DNA of 64,000 nt from Barnesiella sp. (GTDB lineage Bacteria > Bacteroidota > Bacteroidia > Bacteroidales > Barnesiellaceae_A), in NCBI GenBank assembly GCA_045645425.1, contig JAZRIS010000001.1:76592-140591 (forward strand), read 5' to 3'. Made by a program: the position numbers and the translations under genes. Positions 24,572 through 38,927 of the stretch are shown in pieces; position 1 is the first letter of the stretch; every line of letters begins with the position of its first letter. The notes under the pieces are model-generated. The model was not told the DNA's origin. It searched no databases and was given only the letters and a program-made list of their open reading frames with translations.

Positions 24572-27103
24572 ATGATTAGAAAAAAATTAGGAATTTTTCT
24601 TTTCGCAGGATTGTTATCTCTCACCGTGTCATGTAACAAAGATGCAGAGAGTCCAACCCTCGGAAAAGGTAGTTTTGCTCTTTCTCTATCTACCAACGAA
24701 GAGGTAGTGCCGGTATTGAGAAGCGAAACACAAACACAATCGGTAGAAACTCCAAGTGTCGAAGATTTTCGTTTATCTATGAGCAACGAAAACGGAACAT
24801 TCTCGCGCCAATGGAGCAGTATCAACAACCTCAAGCCCGAAGATACTTATGACATAGGCAATTACACTCTCAAAGCCGAGTATGGTTCTATCGAAGAGGA
24901 AGGTTTCAAAACTCCCTACTATGTGGGCGAAACAAAGTTTGCCATTCGCGACCACGAAACGACTCAAGTAAGTCTTTTGTGTGCTCTGGGTCATGTCAAG
25001 CTCACACTCAATTACACCGAGTCTTTCCGCAAATACTTCTCTAATTATGAGGCTACTGTTCGCTCATCGGCCGGCAAGGATGTGGTTATAACCAAGAGCG
25101 AAACACGCGACGCATACTTGCGACCCGGCGATATATCATTGAAGTTGCAACTTACCAAGGCCAATGGCGTATCGGCAACTTTTGAGCCTGCCAAAATCAA
25201 GGATGCCAAGGCTCGCGAGCACTATATTGTCACATTGGACGTGTCAGAAAAAATAGGTGAAGCTATCCTCACTATTGTTTTTGACCAAGCTACCGAGCTT
25301 GCTCCCATCACTATCAACGTGTCGGAGGAGGCTATGGTTGCCCCTGCTCCATACATCATTTTGGATGGTATTACCAATGGTGGCAGCATCGAGTTGCAAG
25401 AGTGCAGTACTCCCGACAATGGCCTGCTCAATGCCGCTATCACTGCAAGAGGTGGCTTGCAATCGTGTACTTTGACAACGCAATCGGCCTACTTGCAATC
25501 GTTGGGCTTTTCTGAGGTTATCGAACTCACAGCTTTGACAACCGAACAGACTCATTTGTTTGAAACTTTAGGATTTGAAGTGAAAGGTTTTGGCAGCAAT
25601 CGCGCCGAAATGGCTATCGTCAATTTTGCTACGCTCACGCCTTCTCTGTTAATTCCTCAAGGTGGCGACAACAAGCATCAATTTACTCTTACTGCTACCG
25701 ACAAGAACGGCAAAGTATCCGACCCCGTTTCTTTCACCATTGTCAGCACTCCTCTCTCCTTGTCTTTGGGCAAAATTGACGATGTGATGATGGGTAGCAC
25801 AAGTATTGATGTGCCTGTGACATTTGATGGCAAGGATATGTCAAGAATGAAGATTATGCGCCTCAACGGCAATAGCAGCTTGTCTATACCCTACACCATC
25901 AAGTCGAACAATGGCAACAACTATATCCTCACTGCCAACTTGGATGTAGAAAATAAATCACAAACGCTTTTCCTCTCTTATGCCGGATTTAAAGAGAGTA
26001 GCAAACAACCCGTAAACATCATTGTTCCTCAATACACTATCAACTTCCCGCCTGCCGATATATGGCACAATCGTGCAAGTTTTGTAGTGAAGGCAGTCGA
26101 TGCCACACACCAACAAGTTGTTGAGAAATACATCAAATTTTATGTAAAGGAAAACAATAATTGGAAAGTATTCACTCCCGAAACCACAAGCCAAGGATAT
26201 AAAATATCGGGACTATCGGCCGGTCGTTCTTATGAATTCAACTCTTCATGTCTTGCCGATGCTGCCGACTTGAACAACAATACTTCTATCAGTATCGTTA
26301 CAGAGGCTCCCTTGGCATTGCCCAACCCCAACTTCGATTCTTGGACTCAATGGTTCTCCAAAGAGATAAAAAAAGGTGGCAGATATGGTGATGCTCCTGC
26401 CGCATGGGTACAAGAAACACAAACCCTTACATCGAGCGATCCCCAAGGATGGGCTACTGTCAATAGCAAGACTCTTCCCACCTCGCCCTCTACCGAGAAT
26501 ACTTGGTACATGGTGCCCTCTACCCTCCCCATAGCAGGTATCGATGGCAATGCCGCCATGTTGCGCAATGTGGCTTGGTCTAACAACGGAAGCACTCCTC
26601 CGCAAGGTTTGTGGGGTGTCGATCAGTCATTAAACAGCCTTAATGTACCCTCTATCTCCAATCGCAGTGCCGGAAAACTGTTCTTGGGCTCATACAATTA
26701 CAATCACGGAACAGGTGCCGAAACTTACAACGAGGGTATCAGCTTTACATCGCGTCCCAGCAAGTTGTCGGGTTACTACAAATATACTGCAAAGGGTAAT
26801 GACTCTCATGGTACTGCCCAAATCGTTGTAGAACATCGCACAAGCAATGGCGAAGTAATAACATTGGCTACGGGCAATATGGCTCTCTCTCCTATCGCCG
26901 ATTTTACTTACTTCGAAATACCTATCAATTATAGCAACGTTGCATACAAAGCCACTCACTTGAGAGTTATGTTCACATCAAGCAACCATGCTTCGTACAA
27001 CGCAGCTTCCGAAACACAGAATATCGTTACTGTCAATAACAAATCACAAGCCGTATCTACCGGTAGCGAATTGTGCCTTGACAACCTAACACTTACATAT
27101 TAA
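24572..27103 (+). CDS. Large modular lipoprotein A: DUF4493-like N-domain, Ig/FN3-like middle, PCMD-like C-terminal domain
   Basis: MIRKKLGIFLFAGLLSLTVSC|NKDAES lipobox. N-module motif PYYVGETKFAI...C...VKLTLNY is shared with B and C. C-module has SAGKLFLGSY...SRPSKLSGYYKY and ends ...LCLDNLTLTY. Confidence 0.8.
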   Translation: MIRKKLGIFLFAGLLSLTVSCNKDAESPTLGKGSFALSLSTNEEVVPVLRSETQTQSVETPSVEDFRLSMSNENGTFSRQWSSINNLKPEDTYDIGNYTLKAEYGSIEEEGFKTPYYVGETKFAIRDHETTQVSLLCALGHVKLTLNYTESFRKYFSNYEATVRSSAGKDVVITKSETRDAYLRPGDISLKLQLTKANGVSATFEPAKIKDAKAREHYIVTLDVSEKIGEAILTIVFDQATELAPITINVSEEAMVAPAPYIILDGITNGGSIELQECSTPDNGLLNAAITARGGLQSCTLTTQSAYLQSLGFSEVIELTALTTEQTHLFETLGFEVKGFGSNRAEMAIVNFATLTPSLLIPQGGDNKHQFTLTATDKNGKVSDPVSFTIVSTPLSLSLGKIDDVMMGSTSIDVPVTFDGKDMSRMKIMRLNGNSSLSIPYTIKSNNGNNYILTANLDVENKSQTLFLSYAGFKESSKQPVNIIVPQYTINFPPADIWHNRASFVVKAVDATHQQVVEKYIKFYVKENNNWKVFTPETTSQGYKISGLSAGRSYEFNSSCLADAADLNNNTSISIVTEAPLALPNPNFDSWTQWFSKEIKKGGRYGDAPAAWVQETQTLTSSDPQGWATVNSKTLPTSPSTENTWYMVPSTLPIAGIDGNAAMLRNVAWSNNGSTPPQGLWGVDQSLNSLNVPSISNRSAGKLFLGSYNYNHGTGAETYNEGISFTSRPSKLSGYYKYTAKGNDSHGTAQIVVEHRTSNGEVITLATGNMALSPIADFTYFEIPINYSNVAYKATHLRVMFTSSNHASYNAASETQNIVTVNNKSQAVSTGSELCLDNLTLTY

Positions 27104-27110
27104 TCACATT

Positions 27111-28361
27111 ATGAAAAAGGTATTATATTCATTTATCATTATATGCCTCTCGGTAGCATTGGCTTCGTGTCACAACGAAAAATTTCCTACCGATGGCAAC
27201 TCAACAGGTACAGTTGATTTATCAACCATAAACGTAAGTTGTGACTATGACGTTGAAGTATTGCGTAGCACCAATATCGACAATTTCATTGTCACCATCA
27301 TCGAGAAATCGAGCAATAACACCATCAACCAATGGAGTTATAGCAAGATGCCCGAAGTATATACCCTCACTGCCGGCTCATACATCTTGAAAATCGAGTC
27401 GGGCTCTCTGCAAGATGCTGCTTGGGACTCTCCCTACTATGCCGCCGAAAAGGAATTCCAAGTGAATGTGGATAAAATTACTGCCATAGGCGATATGGTG
27501 TGCGTATTGAAAAACGTAAAAGTAACCGTTGAGTTTAGTCAAGAACTCTTGGCCGTACTTGGTAATGATGTTAAGGTAAACGTTGCGTTGGGCAAAGGTC
27601 AGCTCGACTTTAAGAAAGACGAAACTCGTGCCGGATATTTTGCTGTTGAAGAAGTCAATAACCGACTTTATGCCTACTTCTCGGGTAGCGTCGATGGCTA
27701 TGTTGATGAAATATACAACGAATATGATGATGTCAAAGCCGGACAATGGCGTATCTTGCGCTATTCGCTCAAACAAAACGACACTCCCAATGTCGAGAAC
27801 GGCTCTTTTGTCGCCGATCTATCGGTAGATGTTTCTTGTAACGTCGTAGAAAAAGACGTACAAGTAGATGTGAATGAGGATGTCATAGAAGACCCCAATC
27901 CCGAGCCTCAACCCGGTGAAGAGCCCGGAGAAAACCCCGGTGATCAACCCGGCGAAGAGCCTGCCAATGGCCCCGTTATCAAAGCTACTACATTCAATAT
28001 CAAAGAACCTCAAATCATTACTCCCGACTTGATTATACAAGTTGTCGTAACAAGTGAACAACCTTTGACCTCACTTGTTGTTGATATTGACTCGGAAACA
28101 TTGACTCCTGCCGAGTTGGAGAGCGTTGGCTTGGCTGCTCATTTCGACCTTGCCAACCCCGGCGATTTGCGTGGCTCGCTCGAAGGTTTGGGCTTCCCCG
28201 TTGCCGAGAATGTAGTGGGCAAACAAGAACTTTCGTTCGACATCACTCCCTTTGCCGGCCTTTTGGCTATATTGGGTAGTGGCTCACACAACTTCATCCT
28301 CACTGCTACCGACAATGCCGGTAACTCTTCAACCGAAACATTAACCCTTATAGTTCAATAG
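27111..28361 (+). CDS. Lipoprotein B: DUF4493-like N-domain, Pro/Glu-rich linker, Ig-like C-domain
   Basis: Lipobox VALASC|HNE, motif PYYAAEKEFQV...C...VKVTVEF, linker EDPNPEPQPGEEPGENPGDQPGEEPANGP. The start is 7 nt after A's stop. Confidence 0.8.
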   Translation: MKKVLYSFIIICLSVALASCHNEKFPTDGNSTGTVDLSTINVSCDYDVEVLRSTNIDNFIVTIIEKSSNNTINQWSYSKMPEVYTLTAGSYILKIESGSLQDAAWDSPYYAAEKEFQVNVDKITAIGDMVCVLKNVKVTVEFSQELLAVLGNDVKVNVALGKGQLDFKKDETRAGYFAVEEVNNRLYAYFSGSVDGYVDEIYNEYDDVKAGQWRILRYSLKQNDTPNVENGSFVADLSVDVSCNVVEKDVQVDVNEDVIEDPNPEPQPGEEPGENPGDQPGEEPANGPVIKATTFNIKEPQIITPDLIIQVVVTSEQPLTSLVVDIDSETLTPAELESVGLAAHFDLANPGDLRGSLEGLGFPVAENVVGKQELSFDITPFAGLLAILGSGSHNFILTATDNAGNSSTETLTLIVQ

Positions 28362-28365
28362 TAAG

Positions 28366-30489
28366 ATGAAACGATATAACAAAATATTTTCTCTATTGCT
28401 TGTCTTCCTATCGCTTATAGGATTTATGTCATGCAAAGACGACTCGAACAATGTGGGCGAGGGTCGTTTAACATTGGGGATGCACGTTTCTGTTCCTCCT
28501 CAAAAAGGTGTAGAAGAGAGCGCACAACAACAAGCTGCCGATATGCTTGCCGATAGTTGTCGTGTGAGAATATACAATAGCAAAGGTCTTATTCGCTACT
28601 ACAAGGGTCTTAACAATGTACCCGACAACATGATGTTGGCAACAGGCGACTATCGCATCAAGGCTGTTACAGGCGACTCTGTTCCTGCTACTTTCACTAT
28701 GGGATATTATAGCGGAGAGAGCAATTTTACCATTGAGGCGGGTAAGACTACAAATGCCGAGGTTACTTGCAAGATTGTCAGCACCTTGGTAACAGTATCT
28801 TTTGCCGATGCGTTGCAAGATATCCTCACCGACTACAAGGTAACCATTGCTTCGCCCAACGCTTCTCTCGTATTTACCCACAATCACATCGATTCTATCG
28901 GTTACTTTATCCTGCCCAAAGATTGCACCCAACTCAGTTGGGCTATCGAAGGCTTGCGCTCCGATGGCAACACATATACTCAATCGGGTATCTTGCAGAA
29001 TGTCAAGCCGGCTATGAAGTACAACCTCAAGTTTGATTACAACGAGTCGGAATACAATCAAGGTGGTGCATACTTCAATCTCTTGGTCGATGAGCGCACG
29101 GTCGAAATGACCAATAACATTGTCATTTACAAGCGCCCCAGCATCACAGGTCTTGATTTTGACATTACTCGCCCCATCGTATTCGAGGAGAACTCGGGCG
29201 ACAACTTGTCGGTATATATCAACGCCTCTTCGGCTCTATCGCAAGTTGTTGTTTCGGCCGACAATCTCCAAGAAATGGGCTTCCCTGCCAACTCGGTAGA
29301 TTTTGTTGCCGCCAGCGAGATTACCCTCAACACTTGGGCGATGGCCGGATTGTCTTATCGCTATGAATATGACAGCGACAATGATATATCGGTTGCCAAG
29401 CTCACCCTTGCAGCGTCTCTCATCAGCAACCTCAAACAAGGCTCTTATATCATCGCTATTCGTGCCGCCGACATGCACGGTAAGGAATGGACCGAGCAAC
29501 TCAATATCACTATCTCCAATGCGGTTGTTATGACCGAGCAACTTATCCGTAGCGAGATTTGGGCCAAACGTGCAACCCTCAGAGGTAGCATTTTGCGTGA
29601 AACCGACGAGCCCTATTCGTTCCAATACCGCATCAAAAACGATGCTACTTGGACAAGTGTCGATGCTACTCGCAATGGCAACTCTATAACTGCTCAAATC
29701 GGCAATCTCACTCCCGGTAAGACTTATGAGTATCGTGCCGTTTCGGGCACTGTTCCTTCGGCTGTTACAATGGAATTTAACACCGAGAGTGCATTTGTTA
29801 TTCCCAACGCCGGATTTGAAAATTGGCACATGGATGGCAAGGTATTGCTCGTTTATGGCAGTGGCGAAGAGAAATGGTGGGACAGCGGTAATCATGGCTC
29901 ATCGACCCTCGACAAGAACATTACCACACAAGACACCGAGCTCAAGCACAGTGGCAAGTCTTCTATCAAGATGAAATCGCAATTTGTTGGTTTGGGTACC
30001 GTTGGTAGATTTGCTGCCGGTAACGTCTTTGCCGGAGTATATGCCGAGACAAAGGGTATGGATGGTATCTTGGACTTTGGTCGCCCCATCAATTCTCGTC
30101 CTTCCAAGCTCAAAGGTTACTACAAATATGTGACCGGTGAGGTCGATTATTCAAACACAGACGCCCTTCCCAAAGGCTCTCCCAACGATGTTGGTAGCAT
30201 ATACATTGCATTGGGCGATTGGGACGATCCTGTCCGCATCAACACAAAAACAGGAACTGTGTTTGACAAAAACGACGAGCATGTGATAGCTTATGGCGAG
30301 ATTATACAGACATCCAATACTCCCGAAGAAGGCCTCATACCTTTCACTATCGACATCGACTATCGTTCAACCGACCGCATCCCCACATATATTCTCCTTG
30401 TGGCTTCGGCAAGTTTCTATGGCGACTTCTTTACCGGTAGCTCACAAAGTACCATGTGGCTCGACGACTTGGAACTTGTATATGAATAA
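28366..30489 (+). CDS. Large modular lipoprotein C: DUF4493-like N-domain, FN3-like module, PCMD-like C-terminal domain
   Basis: Lipobox LIGFMSC|KDDSNN, motif GYYSGESNFTI...C...TLVTVSF, FN3-like NLTPGKTYEYRAV. C-module has FENWH..., FAAGNVFAGVY and SRPSKLKGYYKY, and ends ...MWLDDLELVYE. Confidence 0.8.
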   Translation: MKRYNKIFSLLLVFLSLIGFMSCKDDSNNVGEGRLTLGMHVSVPPQKGVEESAQQQAADMLADSCRVRIYNSKGLIRYYKGLNNVPDNMMLATGDYRIKAVTGDSVPATFTMGYYSGESNFTIEAGKTTNAEVTCKIVSTLVTVSFADALQDILTDYKVTIASPNASLVFTHNHIDSIGYFILPKDCTQLSWAIEGLRSDGNTYTQSGILQNVKPAMKYNLKFDYNESEYNQGGAYFNLLVDERTVEMTNNIVIYKRPSITGLDFDITRPIVFEENSGDNLSVYINASSALSQVVVSADNLQEMGFPANSVDFVAASEITLNTWAMAGLSYRYEYDSDNDISVAKLTLAASLISNLKQGSYIIAIRAADMHGKEWTEQLNITISNAVVMTEQLIRSEIWAKRATLRGSILRETDEPYSFQYRIKNDATWTSVDATRNGNSITAQIGNLTPGKTYEYRAVSGTVPSAVTMEFNTESAFVIPNAGFENWHMDGKVLLVYGSGEEKWWDSGNHGSSTLDKNITTQDTELKHSGKSSIKMKSQFVGLGTVGRFAAGNVFAGVYAETKGMDGILDFGRPINSRPSKLKGYYKYVTGEVDYSNTDALPKGSPNDVGSIYIALGDWDDPVRINTKTGTVFDKNDEHVIAYGEIIQTSNTPEEGLIPFTIDIDYRSTDRIPTYILLVASASFYGDFFTGSSQSTMWLDDLELVYE

Positions 30490-31267
30490 CATTCTTAAGA
30501 CATTGATGCTGACGATATTGCTCCCGGTATTTACTGCCGGAGCAATATCTGTGTCGGCTCAACAACAAGAGATTATTACCGATACTACCCTACTCGACAC
30601 TCCCCCATCGCGCGGTCTTAAACAACACACGTTTGTACCCAAAGGTCAGTGGATTGTGGGAGGTACCATTTCCTACTCTCAACAGAGCGAGCGCAACTAT
30701 CAGTTTCTCGTTGTCGAGGGTATCGATGGTGTGGGTTATAGTTTCAATGCAAGCCCTATGTTCAGTTATATGATAGCCGACAATATGGGCTTGGGTGGTC
30801 GTTTTTCTTATGGCCGCTCGCTTGTGAGAATTAACTCGGCCGACATCAACCTCAGCCCCGACCTCAATCTATCGGTCAGCGACATTTACAACCTCAGTCA
30901 CACATACACCGGTATGGTTGTCCTGCGCAATTATATCAGTATAGGCAACAATATGCGATTTGGCCTTTTCAATGAGACTCAGTTGCACATTGGTGGTGGG
31001 CAAAGCAAGTTGGTGAGTGGCAGTGGCGACAACATCACAGGCAGCTACGAAACGAGTTTCTCGGTGGGACTCAATTTGGCTCCCGGTATCACGGCTTTTT
31101 TCAATGACTTTGTGGCTGTCGAGGTAAATGTGGGCTTGTTGGGATTTAAATATACCAGCACGCAACAGATTACCGACCAAGTCTATGAGGGTAAAACCCA
31201 CACAACTACGGCCAATTTTCAGATTAATTTATTCTCAATAGGATTGGGAGTGGCTTTCTATATATGA
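30482..31267 (+). CDS. Small outer-membrane beta-barrel protein D
   Basis: The ATG at 30482 overlaps C's stop by 8 nt. Signal peptide ends ISVSA|QQQ. Amphipathic strand pattern; C-terminus ANFQINLFSIGLGVAFYI is paralogous to E. Confidence 0.7.
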   Translation: MNNILKTLMLTILLPVFTAGAISVSAQQQEIITDTTLLDTPPSRGLKQHTFVPKGQWIVGGTISYSQQSERNYQFLVVEGIDGVGYSFNASPMFSYMIADNMGLGGRFSYGRSLVRINSADINLSPDLNLSVSDIYNLSHTYTGMVVLRNYISIGNNMRFGLFNETQLHIGGGQSKLVSGSGDNITGSYETSFSVGLNLAPGITAFFNDFVAVEVNVGLLGFKYTSTQQITDQVYEGKTHTTTANFQINLFSIGLGVAFYI

Positions 31268-31274
31268 TGTTGTT

Positions 31275-32105
31275 ATGAAAAAGATGATGTGTATAATTGT
31301 CCTTGCGACAATAATGTGTGTTGTCAATACAACAACGCTATGGGCCTCACAACCCTATACAACTGCACTATCTGCTGCAAGCGACTCTATAAGTGGCACA
31401 ACAATAGATAGTGACGAAAAGAAAAATGTCCGTAAGTTTCAACGCGGTCTTACCAATTACAGTTTCATTAAGAAAAACGAGTGGATATGCGGTATTACCG
31501 CCTCATACACAGGATTTACAAGTGACGAGAGCGACTTGTTGTTGCTTGTCAAAGACTTCAACTTTACAGGCTCGCTATTTGGTGTCGATCCCTTTGTCGG
31601 CTATTTTGTCACCGACAATCAGTGTGTGGGTGTCAAACTTGGCTATTCGGCTACCAAGGGCAATTTAGGCAATTTCTCTCTCGATGTTATCGAGGGTATG
31701 CCCATAGCCCTCAGCAACCTCGAATATAATGCTCAATTCTACTCGGCCGGTATTTTTCATCGCGCCTATTTGGGATTGACTCATAGCGGACAGTTGGGTC
31801 TGTTCAACGAAACAAATCTCTCTTTCCGCAGTGGTGTAAGCCACTTTATAAGGGGTAATGAAGATGGTAGTTCTACCGACACCAAGACTCTCTCCAACGA
31901 GATTATCTTGGGTCTTTCGCCCGGTATTTCGGTCTTTATCATGGACAATGTCAGTGCCAGCGTTTCGGTGGGCATTTTGGGCCTCAGCTACAAGCACAAC
32001 AAACAATATGTCGAAGATGTGATGACCGGCGAATTTATTTCGAGCGGTGCCAATTTCCAGATTAACATCCTCAACATTAACATCGGTATTACTGTTCATA
32101 TATGA
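31275..32105 (+). CDS. Small outer-membrane beta-barrel protein E (paralog of D)
   Basis: 276 aa with a signal peptide. Shares G(L/I)FNETQL/NL..G and a C-terminal ANFQINILNINIGITVHI with D. Confidence 0.7.
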   Translation: MKKMMCIIVLATIMCVVNTTTLWASQPYTTALSAASDSISGTTIDSDEKKNVRKFQRGLTNYSFIKKNEWICGITASYTGFTSDESDLLLLVKDFNFTGSLFGVDPFVGYFVTDNQCVGVKLGYSATKGNLGNFSLDVIEGMPIALSNLEYNAQFYSAGIFHRAYLGLTHSGQLGLFNETNLSFRSGVSHFIRGNEDGSSTDTKTLSNEIILGLSPGISVFIMDNVSASVSVGILGLSYKHNKQYVEDVMTGEFISSGANFQINILNINIGITVHI

Positions 32106-32123
32106 TAGTTGATTGCTGATACA

Positions 32124-33686
32124 ATGAAAAGAAGAATATACAACATACTATGCCTCATGATGGCTCTATTGGCCTTTGTCGGATGTATCGAAAACGATAT
32201 ACCCTATCCTCGCATCCCCGCTCAAATACTTTCGGTCGAGGCCAATGGCTTGTTGCAAGCTCCGGCCATTGACAATGAGGCTCAAACTGTGAAGTTGGTA
32301 CTTGCCGATACGGTAAACCTCAAACGTGTCACTATCACTCAGGCTACTATTACCGACGAGGCTACGGCTTCTCCGTCAATAGTGGGCACTCACGACTTTA
32401 CAAGCCCGGTCGAGTTTACGTTGTCGCTTTACCAAGACTACCGCTGGACGATTGAGGCTTCGCAAGAAATTGAGCGTACAATATCTGTTGTAGGGCAAGT
32501 GGGCAATGCCATTATCGAGGCCAAATACAAGCGTGCCCGGGTTTTTGTCAATGAGCGCATAGACCTCTCGCAAGTCGAGTTCACCTCATTGCAATTAGGT
32601 CCCAAGGGCATTACCTCCTACTCGCCTACTCTATCACAATTACACGACTTCTCTCACGGGCCTCGTCAGGTAGAGGTTAGATACCACGACATCGTTGAGC
32701 AGTGGACTATATATGTCATTCACACCAAGAGCAATGTAACTCTCTCGTCGGTTGATGCGTGGACATGTGTAGCTTGGCTATACGGCAACGGATTGGAGCA
32801 AAACGACAACCGTTTTGAGGTGCGTGAAGCTTCTGCTACCGAGTGGACTGAAGTACCGGAGGAGTATATGGTAGAGCGTGGCAGTACTTTCTCGGCTCGA
32901 CTCATACACCTCAAGCCCAACACTCAATATGTGGCGCGTGCCGTTATCCCCGGCGAGACCAGCAATGAGATTGCCTTCACTACCGAGGGCGAGGTACCCC
33001 TGCCCAACGGAGGTTTTAATGATTGGTGGAAAGATGGCAGTGTGTGGAATCCGTGGGGCGAAAACGACACTCAATGGTGGGATACCGGCAACAAGGGTGC
33101 CTCTACCATGGGTGAGTCTAACACCATACCCACCGATGATGCGATACAAGGCAAAGCGGCTATGTTGCAAACCAAGTTTGTCGGCATAGGCGGATTGGGC
33201 AAACTTGCTGCCGGAAATATCTTTGTCGGCAGATTTGGCCGTGTGGAGGGTACCAATGGTGTCATACACCTTGGTCAGCCATTCAACCACCGCCCCACCA
33301 AGCTCAAGGGTTACTACAAGTACCGCACAGGTCTTATAGACCAAGCCGAGAAGGGTATGGAATATCTCAAAGGCAAGACCGACAGCATGTCGATATACAT
33401 CGCTCTTGGCGACTGGAACGAGCCGGTAGAGATACGCACCAACCCCAACAATCGCAAGCTCTTTGACATCAACGACCCGCACATCATTGCCTATCAAGCT
33501 ATCATTACGAGCGAAGAGAAAAGCGAATACACGCCTTTTGAGTTGGAGCTTGAGTATCGTTCTACTTCTCGCATCCCTAATTACATTATTATCATTGCAA
33601 GCAGTAGCAAGCTGGGCGACTTCTTTACGGGCAGTACACAGAGTGTATTGTATGTCGATGAGTTCTCGCTCGAATGGGACTATTGA
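32124..33686 (+). CDS. Lipoprotein F: Ig-like N-region, FN3-like module, PCMD-like C-terminal domain
   Basis: The ATG at 32124 gives MKRRIYNILCLMMALLAFVGC|IENDIP. FN3-like LKPNTQYVARAV. C-module has GGFNDWW..., LAAGNIFVGRF and HRPTKLKGYYKY, and ends ...LYVDEFSLEWDY. Confidence 0.8.
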   Translation: MKRRIYNILCLMMALLAFVGCIENDIPYPRIPAQILSVEANGLLQAPAIDNEAQTVKLVLADTVNLKRVTITQATITDEATASPSIVGTHDFTSPVEFTLSLYQDYRWTIEASQEIERTISVVGQVGNAIIEAKYKRARVFVNERIDLSQVEFTSLQLGPKGITSYSPTLSQLHDFSHGPRQVEVRYHDIVEQWTIYVIHTKSNVTLSSVDAWTCVAWLYGNGLEQNDNRFEVREASATEWTEVPEEYMVERGSTFSARLIHLKPNTQYVARAVIPGETSNEIAFTTEGEVPLPNGGFNDWWKDGSVWNPWGENDTQWWDTGNKGASTMGESNTIPTDDAIQGKAAMLQTKFVGIGGLGKLAAGNIFVGRFGRVEGTNGVIHLGQPFNHRPTKLKGYYKYRTGLIDQAEKGMEYLKGKTDSMSIYIALGDWNEPVEIRTNPNNRKLFDINDPHIIAYQAIITSEEKSEYTPFELELEYRSTSRIPNYIIIIASSSKLGDFFTGSTQSVLYVDEFSLEWDY

Positions 33687-33724
33687 GAGGCTCATATAGA
33701 GCAATAGAGCTCTTATCTATACAC

Positions 33725-33760
33725 ACGCACCCCACTGCCACAACGAGCAGTGGGGTGCGT
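33725..33760. terminator. Bidirectional terminator shared by the two convergent operons
   Basis: ACGCACCCCACTGC pairs with GCAGTGGGGTGCGT (14-bp perfect stem, 8-nt loop). Confidence 0.75.
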
Positions 33761-33784
33761 CTATTTTATACGATGTATAAACAA

Positions 33785-34462
33785 TTAGAAGGTTACACCC
33801 AAATTGAGGCTCCAAGCCAAGCCAAAATCAAATCCATGATAAAGTGTCACGTCTTGACCATAATTGTGCCATTCACCTTCTATAAGCAAATCGCGCGCCA
33901 TGAGTCCGGTAGAGAAATAGAGGCTGTAATCGCCATCGGTGCGGAAGTTCAAGCCAAACACAGGATTGACAAAGAAACACGATGGATTGTAGCTCACATC
34001 GGGAGCATTTTCAACCTCCTTCGAACCGGTCAAGTGTCCACCTATCGAGAAGGCAAAGAAGGGTTGGCAACGTGTGTCGGTAAAGTACAATCGTGCGTGC
34101 AAATAAAGAGGTATCGAGATAAGGTTATGACTCACACCAAAATTTCCATTTTCAAAATCATCTGATGGATATCCCCGGTCTGAATCTTCATAAATATAGT
34201 TGAAGTTGATACCAATACCCGCACCAAGGAAGAAAAGATTGCTGAAACGATAACCTCCTATGTAGTTGATACCTACATAGTTTGTTTCATCATCATTATC
34301 ATCGAAATTGGTTGCCACAGGCAACTCTATCGACTGCTCATACCCTGCCTCAAAGGCCTGCTTTTCTTTCACGGTAATGGTTTGCGCAGCCGTGATAAGC
34401 TGTGCCGACACCATCATAGGCAACAGTACTACTATGGCACTTAATAGCAATTTTCTACACAT
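33785..34462 (-). CDS. Paralogous small beta-barrel-type secreted protein G1
   Basis: 225 aa. Signal peptide ...MVSA|QLITAAQTITVKEK, strand-like motifs RFSNLFFLGAGIGINF, TDTRCQPFFAFSIGG, YNPSCFF, terminal ...LNLGVTF. Confidence 0.75.
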   Translation of the reverse strand: MCRKLLLSAIVVLLPMMVSAQLITAAQTITVKEKQAFEAGYEQSIELPVATNFDDNDDETNYVGINYIGGYRFSNLFFLGAGIGINFNYIYEDSDRGYPSDDFENGNFGVSHNLISIPLYLHARLYFTDTRCQPFFAFSIGGHLTGSKEVENAPDVSYNPSCFFVNPVFGLNFRTDGDYSLYFSTGLMARDLLIEGEWHNYGQDVTLYHGFDFGLAWSLNLGVTF

Positions 34463-34495
34463 AGTTTTGTCTTATCTTTTTGATTTATCTATTTT

Positions 34496-35170
34496 TCAGA
34501 ATGTTACACCTACACTCATCTTCATGGCTATACCTTCACCCATGTCATGATTTACATACGTTTCTTTATCAACGGGATCATAATATACCGTATATACAAT
34601 ATCACGTATCATGCAACCCACGGTCAAATACATACCCAACTTATCGTTTAGTTGATAGTTTACACCCAACTGCGGATTTATCATAAAACACGACGGATTA
34701 TAATACGCCTTATGGTACTTAGCATCTTTACGTCCGGTTACCTGTCCACCTACCGAGAGTGCAAAAAATGGCTGACAACGGGTATCGGTAAAATACAATC
34801 GAGTGTGCAGATATATCGGCACAGATACCAAGTTTTCGGGGCAGTCGCTACAATAAAGTCCATATACGTCGCTATAACTCAAATCAAAATCGTAACTATA
34901 AGAGTGAAAGTTAATACCAATACCGGCACCGAGAAAGAAAAGGTTACTGAAGCGAATACCTCCTATATACTCCAAGCCATATACGCTTCTATCACCACCC
35001 TTATCTTCAAAGTCGGTTGCATCCGTAAACTCTATCGATTGTTCGTAATGCAGTGGTTTTGCCGGCTTCTCTTTCACGGTAATGGTTTGCGCAGCAGTAA
35101 TAAGCTGTGCCGAGGCTACAGCCGGGAACATTAACGCTACAATTAATGCGATAAAGACTCTTTTTCTCAT
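34496..35170 (-). CDS. Paralogous small beta-barrel-type secreted protein G2
   Basis: 224 aa. Signal ...VASA|QLITAAQTITVKEK, same conserved strand motifs, terminal ...MSVGVTF. Confidence 0.75.
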   Translation of the reverse strand: MRKRVFIALIVALMFPAVASAQLITAAQTITVKEKPAKPLHYEQSIEFTDATDFEDKGGDRSVYGLEYIGGIRFSNLFFLGAGIGINFHSYSYDFDLSYSDVYGLYCSDCPENLVSVPIYLHTRLYFTDTRCQPFFALSVGGQVTGRKDAKYHKAYYNPSCFMINPQLGVNYQLNDKLGMYLTVGCMIRDIVYTVYYDPVDKETYVNHDMGEGIAMKMSVGVTF

Positions 35171-35182
35171 AATATTTCATTC

Positions 35183-35860
35183 TTAGAACGTTACACCAAG
35201 ATTAAGACTCCAAGCAAATCCAAATTCATAATAAAGTTCTACGTCTTGTCCATAATTATACCACGCACCTTCAATAATCAAATCGCGAGCCATAAGGCCG
35301 GTTGAGACATAGAAATCGCAATTACTATTGGTGCGGAAGTTCAAGCCAAACACAGGATTGAGAAAGAAACACGATGGATTATACGACACATCTTTAGCAC
35401 GTTCAACCTCCATCGAACCGGTCAAGTGTCCGCCTATCGAGAAGGCAAAGAAGGGTTGGCAACGCGTGTCGGTAAAATACAATCGTGCGTGCAAATAAAG
35501 AGGTATCGAAATCAAGTTGTGGCGTAATCCGAAGGTTCCTGAGCCATCATAATAATCACTTGGATAACCCCAAGTGAAATCTTCATAGAAATAATTGAAG
35601 TTGATACCAATACCCGCACCCAAGAAGAAAAGGTTGCTGAAACGATAACCACCGATATAGTTGATACCTACATAGTCTGTTCCATCATCCTTTTCATCAA
35701 AGTTGGTAGCAAAGGGCAGTTCAATCGACTGCTCATATCCTGCCTCAAAGGCCGGCTTCTCTTTCACGGTAATGGTTTGCGCAGCAGTAATAAGCTGCGC
35801 CGATGCTACTGCAGGGAGTAGCAAAGCAACAATCAATGCGATAAAAATAGATTTTTTCAT
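35183..35860 (-). CDS. Paralogous small beta-barrel-type secreted protein G3
   Basis: 225 aa. Closest to G1, with differences clustered in short patches. Terminal ...LNLGVTF. Confidence 0.75.
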   Translation of the reverse strand: MKKSIFIALIVALLLPAVASAQLITAAQTITVKEKPAFEAGYEQSIELPFATNFDEKDDGTDYVGINYIGGYRFSNLFFLGAGIGINFNYFYEDFTWGYPSDYYDGSGTFGLRHNLISIPLYLHARLYFTDTRCQPFFAFSIGGHLTGSMEVERAKDVSYNPSCFFLNPVFGLNFRTNSNCDFYVSTGLMARDLIIEGAWYNYGQDVELYYEFGFAWSLNLGVTF

Positions 35861-35872
35861 AGATATATAATT

Positions 35873-36583
35873 TTAGAATGTACAACCTATACTTGCCTTG
35901 AGATAAGGCATCATAATGTACGATATTTCCATGTGATCGCAATAAGGCTCGGCTTGGAACCAACAAGCTACATTGAGATACATCGAAAAGTTATTTCCAC
36001 ATCGCCAATTAACACCAACTGCCGGAGCAACAAGAAATCCGATACGACTATATTCGGCCGATTTACCCGTATATTCCCAATAATAACTATTATCCATAAA
36101 ATCTACGGTGGCTTGTGACGAAAATCTCACACCCATTGATGCTGAGAAAAATGGCTGAACACGACCTTTACCAAGATAGGCACGCACATGCGCATATAGA
36201 GGCACATTAATTACAGATTTAAGTAATAGTCCTCGCTCTTGATTTCCAAACTTTGTGTACGAATTATCATTATAATTACTCGAATCAATGTCGTAATATA
36301 AACCAATACCGGCACCAACAAAGAGTGTGTTATTAAATCTATAACCACCTATATAATCGGCGCCAAATGCAGGTGTAAAATGTAAACGATCTCCATCCAT
36401 GAAAGCCAAATCGGTAATACCTAAAAAATATAGCTCTACCGATTGTTCATAACCGGGTTCAATAGCAGAAAGTATTTTTTTCTCCTTTACCGTAATGGTT
36501 TGCGCAGCAGTAATAAGCTGCGCCGAGGCTACAGCCGGAAATAGAATGGCTACAATAGCACATATAATCAACTTGACTTTCAT
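35873..36583 (-). CDS. Paralogous small beta-barrel-type secreted protein G4 (most divergent)
   Basis: 236 aa. Same signal and mature N-terminus ...VASA|QLITAAQTITVKEK. Lacks the two Cys found in G1-G3. Terminal ...ASIGCTF. Confidence 0.7.
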   Translation of the reverse strand: MKVKLIICAIVAILFPAVASAQLITAAQTITVKEKKILSAIEPGYEQSVELYFLGITDLAFMDGDRLHFTPAFGADYIGGYRFNNTLFVGAGIGLYYDIDSSNYNDNSYTKFGNQERGLLLKSVINVPLYAHVRAYLGKGRVQPFFSASMGVRFSSQATVDFMDNSYYWEYTGKSAEYSRIGFLVAPAVGVNWRCGNNFSMYLNVACWFQAEPYCDHMEISYIMMPYLKASIGCTF

Positions 36584-36635
36584 AGTGAATTAGTTTTAAA
36601 AGATAATTATCAAATACCGGCAGTTATAGCCTGCA

Positions 36636-37151
36636 TTATTTCTCTTTTACTTTCACATCGACCGACTTGCTCTTGCGCAGTATCTCGGTATTGTCTTGTC
36701 CGTATGTGGCCAAACGAGCCTCTTGGACATTCTCAATATCGGCTCTCGTTGCGTTACGGAAGTTGGTATATTTGGCAGGATAACCACTCACGGTTATCTC
36801 CAACAAGCCTTCGTCGTTGGTAATAACATCTATGATTGTACCCACAAGCAAGTCGGCATCATGCGCCTTGGCAGCTTTGCTCAATGCTATCTTCTTGAGG
36901 TCGGGCATCATGGCCTTTATTTGCTCGGCATTGCCGGCTGTAACAGGAAAAATTTTATAGGCTTCTTTCTCGGTATAAGTAATCTTGTTGGGCGACACTA
37001 CTACATCGGCAATGAGTGGTGCTGTCATCATGTAATGATCGGGCTCAAGCGTGCGTGTAGATGACTCTTGATAAACAACTCGTGTATCGCGTTGCGCAAA
37101 TACTACAAGCGACAGACTTGCCATAGCAAGTACAAACATAATGCGTTTCAT
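36636..37151 (-). CDS. Secreted hypothetical protein H (first gene of the G operon)
   Basis: The ATG at 37151 gives MKRIMFVLAMASLSLVVFA|QRD. 171 aa, no recognisable family. Its stop is 52 nt upstream of the G4 start. Confidence 0.6.
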   Translation of the reverse strand: MKRIMFVLAMASLSLVVFAQRDTRVVYQESSTRTLEPDHYMMTAPLIADVVVSPNKITYTEKEAYKIFPVTAGNAEQIKAMMPDLKKIALSKAAKAHDADLLVGTIIDVITNDEGLLEITVSGYPAKYTNFRNATRADIENVQEARLATYGQDNTEILRKSKSVDVKVKEK

Positions 37152-37200
37152 GGTGTAAAACTCTTGGATACCTCTTACATCCTCTCTGAGGTAATAATAC

Positions 37201-37400
37201 AAAAAAAGCGTGAGGATATTGTTGCTTATCTTTTACGAGGTATCGCCAAACACCTTACAGAGAATAAACAGTCCACCCCACGCGGAGCCGATACCCCGGC
37301 GGGGTGATATGGCTGAGCATGAGCGTTTTGTTGACTGCTAAATCTTTCTCTGTTTGAAATTTTGGCGATTTTCGTAAAAGAAGATTAAGCACAAACGCTT
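37201..37400 (-). ncRNA. Unclassified ~195-nt multi-segment hairpin RNA with 3' U-tract (sRNA or leader attenuator candidate)
   Basis: Nested complementary segments: 37206-11/37395-400, 37223-28/37386-91, 37230-38/37372-80, 37242-50/37361-69, 37257-64/37346-53, 37269-73/37333-37, 37274-79/37301-06, 37287-90/37297-300. On the minus strand the structure is followed by TTTTTTT (37201-37207). The promoter box at 37442-37449 lies upstream. Confidence 0.4.
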
Positions 37401-37441
37401 AAAAAAAATGTAACAACAAAAGGTCTCAACCTTTCGATTTA

Positions 37442-37449
37442 CAAATATA
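37442..37449 (-). promoter_or_regulatory. -7 promoter box (TATATTTG on minus strand) upstream of the hairpin RNA and the H-G4-G3-G2-G1 operon
   Basis: CAAATATA on the plus strand. Lies between the MFS terminator and the hairpin element. Confidence 0.45.
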
Positions 37450-37486
37450 GAAATAAATTTTGATTTATACCTATCTTAACTACATA

Positions 37487-37536
37487 AAAAAAATATGGGC
37501 ACAACCTCGTGAGGGTTGTGCCCATATTTTTTTTAT
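37487..37536. terminator. Bidirectional terminator after the MFS gene
   Basis: ATATGGGCACAACC pairs with GGTTGTGCCCATAT. An A8 run lies upstream and a T8 run downstream. Confidence 0.8.
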
Positions 37537-37556
37537 GTATCGTACTATCGATACTA

Positions 37557-38927
37557 TTACTTTTGTACATTGGGTTTTTCAAGACCATAATCTTTGCGAC
37601 GGTCTTCTATCTTCAAGTAAATACCTATTATCAAAGCCAATACACCAAATGACGAGAAGATAATCATAGGCAACTGATAGCCACCACTCGACTCAAGTGT
37701 AGCACCAATCAAAATGGGTGTAAGGCAAAGACCTATATTTTGAATCCAGAAAATCAAGCAGTAGGCCGAGCCCAATATCTTGGCATCGATAATCTTGGGT
37801 ACCGAGGGCCACAATGCGGCAGGTACCAATGAGAACGATACTCCCAAGATGAGGATAAGTATCACGGCAAAAGTCTTTGAAGGTATGAGGGGCAAGAGGA
37901 ATGCAAAGCTGAGGTGGCATGCAATCATAATGATAGCACCCAACATGAGCATCGATGCACCTTTACCTTTATAGTCGATAAATGCGCCCAAGAAGGGTGT
38001 GAGCACCATAGCCAAGATGGGGAAGAAGCTGAAGAGTTGTGAAGCCTCATCGGCTCCGATACCCAATGTTGTCTCCAAGTAGTTGGGGGCAAAACGTTGG
38101 AAGGGGAAGATAGCCGAGTAATACAATACACACAAGAGAGCTACCAACCAGAACATCTTGCTTGACAAGATTTTGCCCAAGTCGCTGATGCGGAACTCCT
38201 CCTCGCTCGAAGGCTCTTCGCTCAACTCGCCGGCGGCAATGAGTTGCTTGTCAAACTTGCTATCCATTACAGAGAACACGGTGTAGCAAATAAGACCGAT
38301 GAGCAACAAGGCGGTACAGAAACCTACGGGTGCTACTACCGAGTTGTCAAACTGTTTTGATACGATAGGTGCAATCCACATAACGGCAAACACACCAAGA
38401 CGTGCAATAGCCATCTCGATACCCATGGCCAACGCCATCTCTTTGCCTTTAAACCATTTTGCGATAGACTTTGATACGGTTGTTCCGGCCATCTCACATC
38501 CGCAACCAAATATCATAAAGCCCAAGCATGCCATCTTGGCATTACCCGGTAGCTCTACCCACCAGCTGTTGAGCCATTGGCACAAGCCTGTTTCCGCAAA
38601 GCTATCCGAAATAGCCCAGAACTTAATGGCGGCTCCTATCACCATCAATGAGGCCGACAAGATACCGGTGAAACGAATACCCATCTTGTCGAGGATGATA
38701 CCGGCAAAGATAAGGAAGAAACAGAATACGTTGAGGAAGTACTCCGATGCTGCATAAGTACCAAATACGGTACTATTCCATCCGAGATTGCTCTCAACAA
38801 GTGACTTGAGGGGTGACATTACATCGACAAACATGTAGGCGAAGAACATCATGAGCGCAACAAGAATGAGCGCTGCCCAACGTGCTACTACCGAGTCGTT
38901 GAGCTTTTTCTGAATTACTTGTGTCAT
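37557..38927 (-). CDS. MFS transporter
   Basis: 456 aa with about 12 TM segments and a central cytoplasmic loop (acidic SEEPSSEEE). Confidence 0.8.
   Translation of the reverse strand: MTQVIQKKLNDSVVARWAALILVALMMFFAYMFVDVMSPLKSLVESNLGWNSTVFGTYAASEYFLNVFCFFLIFAGIILDKMGIRFTGILSASLMVIGAAIKFWAISDSFAETGLCQWLNSWWVELPGNAKMACLGFMIFGCGCEMAGTTVSKSIAKWFKGKEMALAMGIEMAIARLGVFAVMWIAPIVSKQFDNSVVAPVGFCTALLLIGLICYTVFSVMDSKFDKQLIAAGELSEEPSSEEEFRISDLGKILSSKMFWLVALLCVLYYSAIFPFQRFAPNYLETTLGIGADEASQLFSFFPILAMVLTPFLGAFIDYKGKGASMLMLGAIIMIACHLSFAFLLPLIPSKTFAVILILILGVSFSLVPAALWPSVPKIIDAKILGSAYCLIFWIQNIGLCLTPILIGATLESSGGYQLPMIIFSSFGVLALIIGIYLKIEDRRKDYGLEKPNVQK

Follow-up and report, generated by a model that had tools for sequence, protein, structure and literature searches.

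Small outer-membrane β-barrels are common, but what their partners and the parts outside the barrel do has seldom been established, particularly in gut Bacteroidales. The closest described systems are the small eight-stranded barrels (OmpA-TM, OmpX/Ail, OmpW, and Neisseria NspA and Opa; PF13505). Here we analyze a tandem array of four predicted barrels of this kind, G1 to G4, together with the gene that precedes them, H, in a 64,000-nucleotide stretch of a Barnesiella sp. genome (contig JAZRIS010000001.1; hereafter the window). The G proteins are like the known barrels in size, signal peptide, and C-terminal Phe, and are predicted to share their eight antiparallel strands, short turns, and long variable loops. 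They differ from them by a conserved 14-residue N-terminal tail (N-tail), predicted to lie in the periplasm, and by an obligate upstream partner gene.

H and the barrel gene constitute a two-gene envelope module that occurs in split, lipidated, and fused forms. The locus is a clean case in which one periplasmic protein is apparently served by several barrels via an invariant 14-residue peptide, and the natural fusion and lipoprotein variants are built-in controls for the idea that this peptide serves in docking. The first-pass annotation, made from the sequence alone, had described five co-oriented minus-strand genes, H, G4, G3, G2, and G1, separated by gaps of 52, 12, 12, and 33 nt, in agreement with the coordinates of the open reading frames (ORFs):

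36636-37151, minus strand: H, ORF of 171 aa counted from the ATG
35873-36583, minus strand: G4, ORF of 236 aa; class D barrel paralog, the most divergent copy
35183-35860, minus strand: G3, ORF of 225 aa; class C' barrel paralog, the copy used for modeling
34496-35170, minus strand: G2, ORF of 224 aa; class A barrel paralog
33785-34462, minus strand: G1, ORF of 225 aa; class C barrel paralog

H and the predicted G barrels

Of the 27 loci whose sequence extends far enough upstream (this locus counted), 25 have an H homolog directly ahead of the barrel gene, usually at a distance of ~9-25 nt. The 25 comprise this locus, L001-L004, L007-L013, L014-L017, L019, L021-L023, five loci within L028-L033, and L097; the two exceptions, without a detected H, are L018 (see below) and L020. 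The pair is kept in genomes of Muribaculaceae, Alistipes, and Cryptobacteroides, where nothing else around it is syntenic. Likewise, H stands upstream of G in L007-L013, which otherwise show no shared synteny.

Single-chain proteins in which an N-terminal H domain is followed by a linker and a barrel are also observed (P0205, P0174, P0227, P0238, and probably P0253). Pfam gave one weak barrel match among the long H-family members, and a custom barrel hidden Markov model was needed to reveal the fusions. It confirmed four of them, which have no internal signal peptide and carry the barrel motifs of the family. The fusions lack both the N-tail of G and the C-terminal tail (C-tail) of H. The existence of the fusions provides Rosetta-stone support for a partnership of H and the barrel. 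Many H homologs are lipoproteins.

In all four G proteins, a hydrophobic leader ending in VASA precedes a Gln at position +1, defining a Sec signal peptide with a signal peptidase I (SPI) site. As the first-pass annotation had stated, an N-terminal Gln after SPI cleavage is documented as the Bacteroidetes Q-rule, which the Gln at +1 fits (PMC5837995, PMC10653852). Against the Pfam family OMP_b-brl (PF13505; cut-off 28.7 bits), G1 passes with 28.9 bits, G4 and G2 reach 28.5 and 18.9 bits, respectively, and G3 gives no match. An AlphaFold model of G3, built from an alignment of 62 homologs with the signal peptide included in the modeled sequence, has a predicted local distance difference test score (pLDDT) of 82.5 and a predicted template modeling (TM) score of 0.71. 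It contains eight long strands (residues 41-53, 63-73, 78-89, 117-128, 134-146, 164-176, 182-201, and 206-224). The top Foldseek matches of the model are 1p4t (NspA), OmpA-TM, OmpW, OprF-N, and Ail, each with a probability of 1.00. The short turns and long loops of the model fit the standard topology with both termini in the periplasm, and on this basis the barrel is oriented with predicted external loops at 54-62, 90-116, 147-163, and ~192-215 and periplasmic turns at 74-77, 129-133, and 177-181.

All four proteins end in TF. This supplies the C-terminal aromatic residue that had been named earlier as typical of such barrels and that belongs to the signal for the β-barrel assembly machinery (BAM); across the family, G222, T224, and F225 each reach a conservation of 90% or more. 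Two Cys residues (in TRCQ and PSCF) are kept in G1-G3 and absent in G4, also as first described. The initial assignment of the G proteins to small outer-membrane barrels is borne out by the modeling, and we predict that G1-G4 are eight-stranded outer-membrane barrels of the OmpA-TM/NspA/OmpW class. In Pfam, none of them matches the C-terminal OmpA-like peptidoglycan-binding domain (PF00691), and the proteins stop at the last barrel strand. Plug and TonB_dep_Rec matches are likewise absent in Pfam, and the proteins have 224-236 aa and eight predicted strands, compared with a 22-strand barrel. NCBIfam, PADLOC, and PHROGs give no match for H or any G. A word-indexed search found 67 clusters of the G family, all from gut metagenomes and either unnamed or labeled 'hypothetical' or 'opacity protein-like'. 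Among the collected genomes, metagenome-assembled genomes (MAGs) of ruminant and other gut Bacteroidales contain it.

In some distant barrels (P0065 and P0066, and those of L015, L017, L019, and L023), the N-tail is missing, and the chain begins instead with a CarboxypepD_reg domain and a long linker of Ala/Glu/Lys-rich repeats. The H homolog upstream of the CarboxypepD_reg barrel is a lipoprotein in L015, L019, and L023, and the start of the upstream H ORF is missing in L017.

H is an exported protein. Its predicted SPI cleavage, between VFA and QRD, also fits the Q-rule. The AlphaFold model of H has a pLDDT of 76 overall and >90 in an α/β core (residues ~45-150). The model and the alignment together indicate a conserved yet unstructured N-terminal segment and a disordered amphipathic C-tail ending in SVDVKVKEK. 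H is more conserved than G. Pfam, PF01906 (DUF74) included, gives no match for H or for any of 49 aligned homologs. A search of the H profile against sequences of the PDB returned non-significant matches to 1y2i (E=0.24), 1vr4 (0.73), and 2gtc (0.81), and Foldseek matched the model to 1y2i with E=6e-3, a probability of 0.99, and TM-scores of 0.29/0.41. These matches hint weakly at a YbjQ/dodecin-like fold for the modeled core. An exhaustive profile search found 1,368 clusters of the H family at 50% identity. Lipoproteins of ~355-385 aa with three tandem H domains and no barrel are also present (P0191, P0221, P0223, P0241, P0256, and P0270), and the H domain therefore occurs in another architecture as well.

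The G genes fall into four ancient paralog classes with orthologs across genomes, as seen in the tree. The array order here is D-C'-A-C, versus A-(D)-B-C elsewhere; this genome carries a duplicated class C and lacks class B. An ortholog of class D (G4) was found in L002 alone. G1 and G3 are 79% identical and have a dS of 0.5-0.8, so that their duplication is old. In the alignment, their differences cluster in short patches, as had been noticed in the first reading, which took these patches to be external. This applies to the main ones, which lie in the predicted loops L2 (90-116) and L3 (147-163) and at the β7/β8 tip. It does not apply to patch 177-186 (TNSNCDFYVS in G3 and TDGDYSLYFS in G1), which begins in the predicted periplasmic turn T3 and runs into β7. 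Mean conservation over 62 family members is 0.52 in the external regions, 0.77 in the strands, and 0.67 in the periplasmic turns.

In the first-pass annotation, the array was taken for a family that serves antigenic variation or as phage decoys, is under diversifying selection, and may partner with an adjacent lipoprotein operon. Several paralogs are indeed present, and their variation is concentrated in the predicted external loops. However, the Nei-Gojobori ratio of nonsynonymous to synonymous changes (dN/dS), a region-wide rather than site-level value from few sequences, is 0.08-0.50 in the external regions of class-C genes and 0.04-0.13 elsewhere. The loops are less constrained than the rest of G, with dN/dS <1, and the claim of diversifying selection is not upheld. 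The paralogs belong to ancient classes that have orthologs in other genomes and do not turn over rapidly. Expression of one paralog at a time also finds no mechanism here: G1-G4 are all complete and co-oriented, 12-33 nt apart, and a search for switching and slippage elements revealed neither tandem repeats within the operon nor convincing inverted repeats around the promoter. The proposed partner converges on the array from the other side:

24572-33686, plus strand: six-gene operon encoding three large lipoproteins, two barrel-like proteins (~260-276 aa, predicted; genes at 30482-31267 and 31275-32105), and a PCMD lipoprotein (PF13201, E=2e-46)

Among the other loci, L001, L002, and L004 alone have this operon next to the array, which speaks for an association. 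It is absent beside the module in L003 and L007-L013, where H is always present. Because its synteny in L001, L002, and L004 does not extend to L003, which lacks it, we place it outside the H-G module. The conserved partner of the barrels is H, not the lipoprotein operon, and we regard the antigenic-variation or decoy explanation as quite improbable. The first-pass annotation was thus partly right, in the barrels, the loops, the combination of selection with gene conversion, and the docking idea (the last two are treated below); it was wrong on the partner and went too far on diversifying selection.

The N-terminal tail of the G proteins

The SA that ends the signal peptide is followed by the identical sequence QLITAAQTITVKEK in G1-G4, a junction already recognized in the first reading. 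The corresponding blocks of 48 nt are:

36479-36526, minus strand: N-tail block of G4, encoding SAQLITAAQTITVKEK
35756-35803, minus strand: N-tail block of G3
35066-35113, minus strand: N-tail block of G2
34361-34408, minus strand: N-tail block of G1

The plus-strand pattern reported for the block, ACGGTAATGGTTTGCGCAGC.GT.ATAAGCTG.GCCGA, has four matches, with 0, 0, 0, and 1 mismatches, and none in 100 shuffles. The N-tail (residues 21-36) has a pLDDT <50 in the G3 model and is for this reason considered not to be part of the barrel. With a conservation score of 0.84, it is one of the two best-conserved segments, comparable to the best strand. Across the family the motif takes forms such as QLIT[AST]AQTITVKEK, QIISSSQIITTETR, QIITSSQTITTKTQ, QLVQSSSLVVTR, and QLIRSSRTVITKTKK. 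In 17 genes from 5 genomes, 15 of 16 positions of the peptide are identical. Position 6 is Ala in all four copies here and Ser or Thr in orthologs elsewhere.

Gene conversion or strong selection had been offered as the cause of this block, and both hold, as family-wide selection on the protein and local gene conversion. The paralogs of four other genomes differ at ~10 of the 48 nt despite encoding the same peptide. Most paralog pairs of L001-L004 show 9-14 nt differences per 48 nt, and two adjacent L002 pairs only 3 and 5. The same peptide is encoded with these differences elsewhere, and the constraint therefore acts on the peptide, not on the DNA or RNA. The paralogs in this genome differ in the block by a mean of 4.2 nt, versus 9.2-10.7 within four related genomes and 7.6-8.1 between orthologs. 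Between G2 and G3, synonymous differences amount to 1/16 in the block versus 50/100 in the rest of the gene (p=0.0006). An excess of synonymous identity in the block is also found for G3-G4 (p=0.024) and G1-G2 (p=0.019), and for no other pair. The extra nucleotide identity in this genome is local concerted evolution, in which the repeated 5' ends undergo gene conversion or unequal crossing-over.

The block could alternatively be kept for a reason that lies in the nucleic acid, as an RNA hairpin or as a recombination or regulatory site. The near identity of the block in four otherwise diverged genes would agree with this, as would the synonymous excess of some pairs and a 7-bp inverted repeat, GCGCAGC...GCTGCGC, visible in G3 and G4. 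However, L001-L004 encode the peptide with the differences given above for most pairs, and the inverted repeat is lost: the candidate hairpin is not kept in other genomes and was rejected. The nucleotide identity represents lineage-specific homogenization, at most a recombination substrate. This explanation is largely refuted, and we rate it as very improbable.

We propose that the N-tail of the barrel docks H, a proposal that we hold tentatively and give slightly less than an even chance. Residues 1-~14 of mature G (pyroGlu-LITAAQTITVKEK) would form a flexible periplasmic tail. In other lineages, a lipid anchor on H or its covalent fusion to the barrel would keep H at the outer membrane; neither is present here. 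The G N-tail may substitute for them as a docking strand that tethers the non-lipidated H non-covalently beneath the outer membrane, probably by β-strand pairing with H and possibly with the similar amphipathic C-tail of H. In this clade, the barrel gene would have been amplified into 3-4 ancient classes behind one H. As every paralog would have to bind the single H, the tail would be frozen in its protein sequence, with the surface loops drifting under relaxed constraint. In this genome, recombination among the repeated 5' ends has also homogenized the block at the nucleotide level and rearranged the array. If the docking model is true, the pair would define a two-component envelope module of a new kind, found in well over 1,000 protein clusters.

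The distribution of the tails is consistent with such a contact between tail and H. All seven lineages with an SPI-type H (7/7) have the canonical G N-tail together with an H C-tail of the form φ-x-φ-K-E/K. In the six lineages with a lipoprotein H, the barrel either has a degenerate tail or carries a CarboxypepD_reg domain and a linker instead. The earlier suggestion that the conserved peptide is a docking segment fits this co-variation of the tails, as well as the H-G linkage and the fusions.

A different partner for the N-tail is conceivable. The tail might be a TonB-box-like strand for TonB, or a handle used by BAM, chaperones, or peptidoglycan-associated proteins, with H linked to the barrel without being the ligand. 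It forms an amphipathic β-strand motif x-T-I-T-V-x, with SLVVTR and SMIVTR in distant members, and is predicted to be disordered in the monomer model. We take its TITV to resemble enterobacterial TonB boxes, e.g. DTITVTA of FhuA, although the resemblance is short and of low complexity. In contrast to what TonB dependence would imply, the G proteins have neither a plug domain nor a 22-strand barrel. A different partner would furthermore leave unexplained the strict H-G adjacency, the fusions, and the loss of both tails in these fusions. We consider it unlikely.

The N-tail could also act within its own chain, as a plug or lid of the barrel or as an assembly aid, and be conserved for folding. 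It stands directly before β1, separated from it by a variable linker of 5 residues. N-terminal plugs or helices occur in small barrels of other families, and FapF is also among the Foldseek matches of the G3 model. However, the low-pLDDT tail is not put into the lumen by AlphaFold, though in a model that includes the signal peptide, and eight-stranded barrels are almost without a lumen. Moreover, the fusions swap the tail for the H domain yet keep the barrel, and the variants fused to CarboxypepD_reg have no tail. An intramolecular role therefore appears rather improbable.

Several observations weigh against docking of H by the N-tail and against the module as described. The barrel topology and the assignment of loops and turns derive solely from a predicted model, in which one of the variable patches, 177-186, begins on the periplasmic side. 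The fold assignment of H is weak (TM-scores of 0.29/0.41, profile E of 0.24) and points to no biochemical function. L018, from a Bacteroidaceae MAG, appears to contain a barrel without H, a possible exception to the H-G rule: at L018:9600-10567, the leader RNA described below directly precedes a barrel-family gene and no H was detected. The correlation of the tails with SPI-type or lipoprotein H may rest on one or few evolutionary transitions and is statistically weak. Finally, β-like tails (QIITWRTITKV and QVVRSGVVRR) persist in some lipoprotein-H lineages, which also counts in favor of a different partner; the tail may therefore have another or an additional role.

The leader RNA and the boundaries of the probable operon

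A long structured element separates H from its promoter. The elements of this region and the further copies of the leader are:

37442-37449, minus strand: promoter -7 box of the Bacteroides type, TAtaTTTG, 298 nt upstream of the H ATG
37200-37403, minus strand: structured leader, member of a widespread Bacteroidales family; a rod-like extended hairpin of ~205 nt with AAGCGT/ACGCTT as its closing stem; a U-run follows (37201-37207)
37171-37191, minus strand: small 3' hairpin, CCTCAGAGAGG...GAGG, located past the rod and before the ATG of H; kept in part of the leader family
L003:7842-8045, L007:9235-9437, L009:4602-4803, L013:9238-9444: further leader copies
L018:9646-9850, L021:6280-6489, L032:3741-3948, and L034-L148: further leader copies

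The -7 box lies at -298 to -303 relative to the H ATG in ten loci. Each leader copy folds independently into the same rod, with a minimum free energy (MFE) of about -65 to -91 kcal/mol, and in the first nine copies the sense strand is always more stable than the antisense strand. The RNAalifold consensus was poor (covariation term -0.47) and was replaced by a projection from the individual MFE folds. In 81 distinct copies, from which the structure was itself derived, 88.3% of the cells pair, compared with 41-48% when the partners are slid. Compensatory changes occur in 39 pairs, and compensated cells number 381, versus 86-213 with slid partners. In 500 shuffles, the observed value was never attained for any of the five measures, and many G.U pairs are strand-specific.

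Rfam 15 gives no match at the gathering threshold in the window. At E<=1, the only Rfam matches within 33600-37600 fall on the neighboring terminator hairpin; these weak matches (L20_leader and others) merely pick up the hairpin at 37488-37532. No description or match of the leader was found in the literature on miniature inverted-repeat transposable elements and structured RNAs. The FopS small RNAs are only 65-70 nt long (PMC11697453), far shorter than the leader, which rules them out as its identity.

The leader seemed at first to be specific to the H-G operon, as all 15 copies from the genome loci (15/15) preceded H or G. A metagenome scan, with 115 exact pattern matches of which 80 were examined, refuted this, since 1 of the 80 copies precedes H-G. 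The genes behind the leader encode surface lipoproteins, BspA-like leucine-rich repeat proteins, small helix-turn-helix proteins, P-loop proteins, and a methylase-like protein. The leader points toward the downstream ORF in essentially all copies with enough sequence. The downstream ATG is most often ~85-95 nt past the conserved 3' pattern, within a range of ~40 to 280 nt, and a -7 box is found 35-72 nt upstream of the leader in 82 of 96 copies. The close relative L002 has no leader, and L001 keeps only its 3' end.

These features leave two readings of the leader: a shared element for attenuation or processing, or a directional repeat of the Correia or enterobacterial repetitive intergenic consensus (ERIC) kind. 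It may matter more than the module itself. The different accessory and surface genes that it precedes in Bacteroidales of the human and ruminant gut number in the dozens, and it could be a sign that a dominant phylum of the gut shares a control of surface-protein expression acting after initiation. The two parts can be combined into one proposal. The N-tail would be a dedicated docking strand for a soluble H, within a module of three interchangeable forms whose amplified barrels share one H, and the leader would represent a large undescribed family of rod RNAs, maybe a common attenuation or processing signal. Taken as a whole, this is possible but on the unlikely side.

Translation of the leader (37152-37310, and stop-to-stop ORFs of P0085 and L018) yields peptides of the type ...NAWGGLFI...FGD.... 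Peptides of this origin are spurious N-terminal extensions of H and G in public gene calls, an annotation artifact.

The layout of the array suggests a single operon, which would run from the promoter through the structured leader to H, G4, G3, G2, and G1; we infer that H-G4-G3-G2-G1 are co-transcribed. The following features flank it:

33725-33760, strand-neutral: hairpin, likely shared terminator, with a 14-bp stem and 10 GC pairs, lying between the stop codons at which G1 and the PCMD lipoprotein gene converge
37557-38927, minus strand: major facilitator superfamily (MFS) transporter gene, directly followed by the hairpin at 37488-37532

A terminator shared with the lipoprotein operon had been proposed earlier. 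The hairpin between the convergent genes agrees with it, and a canonical T-tract is present on the plus side only. The hairpin at 37488-37532, directly after the MFS transporter gene, is very strong, with a 20-bp stem flanked by A-runs and T-runs, and has the appearance of a bidirectional terminator shielding the H-G promoter. An inverted repeat around H (I6; 17 nt, 82% complementary, AT-rich) was judged a chance match, and a sigma-70 promoter scan was set aside as inapplicable to Bacteroides promoters.

Relation to known systems

The sequence identity of the G proteins to the solved small barrels is just 10-15%. The G array differs from Neisseria Opa in having no phase-variation repeats. Compared with both Opa and the Bacteroides loci with invertible promoters, it shows neither a switch nor a loop dN/dS >1.

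Two-domain proteins of the OmpA family likewise combine an eight-stranded barrel with a periplasmic globular domain, and the natural H-barrel fusions are literally two-domain proteins of this kind. In contrast to the OmpA family, the H domain is N-terminal rather than C-terminal, and in this genome it is a separate polypeptide. The periplasmic H domain is also not an OmpA_C peptidoglycan-binding domain, as judged from the lack of a Pfam match.

The modeled core of H shares with YbjQ/UPF0145 (DUF74) and dodecin-like small α/β proteins a β-α-β-β pattern and the motif ...A..A...AD.lvg..id....g.l.itvsG. Two YbjQ/UPF0145 structures, 1y2i and 1vr4, top both the profile and the fold searches, followed by 2gtc in the former and 3qkb in the latter. 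H differs from these proteins in being exported and in its additional conserved N- and C-terminal segments, and the match scores are non-significant (E of 0.24-0.8).

The leader is like the Correia repeats of Neisseria, the enterobacterial ERIC repeats, and terminator attenuators in being a multi-copy, long, imperfect intergenic hairpin, here of ~200 nt. As in these systems, it is probably co-transcribed with the downstream gene, and its stem is followed by a U-run. In contrast to these systems, the leader faces the downstream ORF in essentially all copies with enough sequence and is promoter-proximal in 82/96 copies. It also differs from them by its strong compensatory covariation and its strand-specific G.U pairs.

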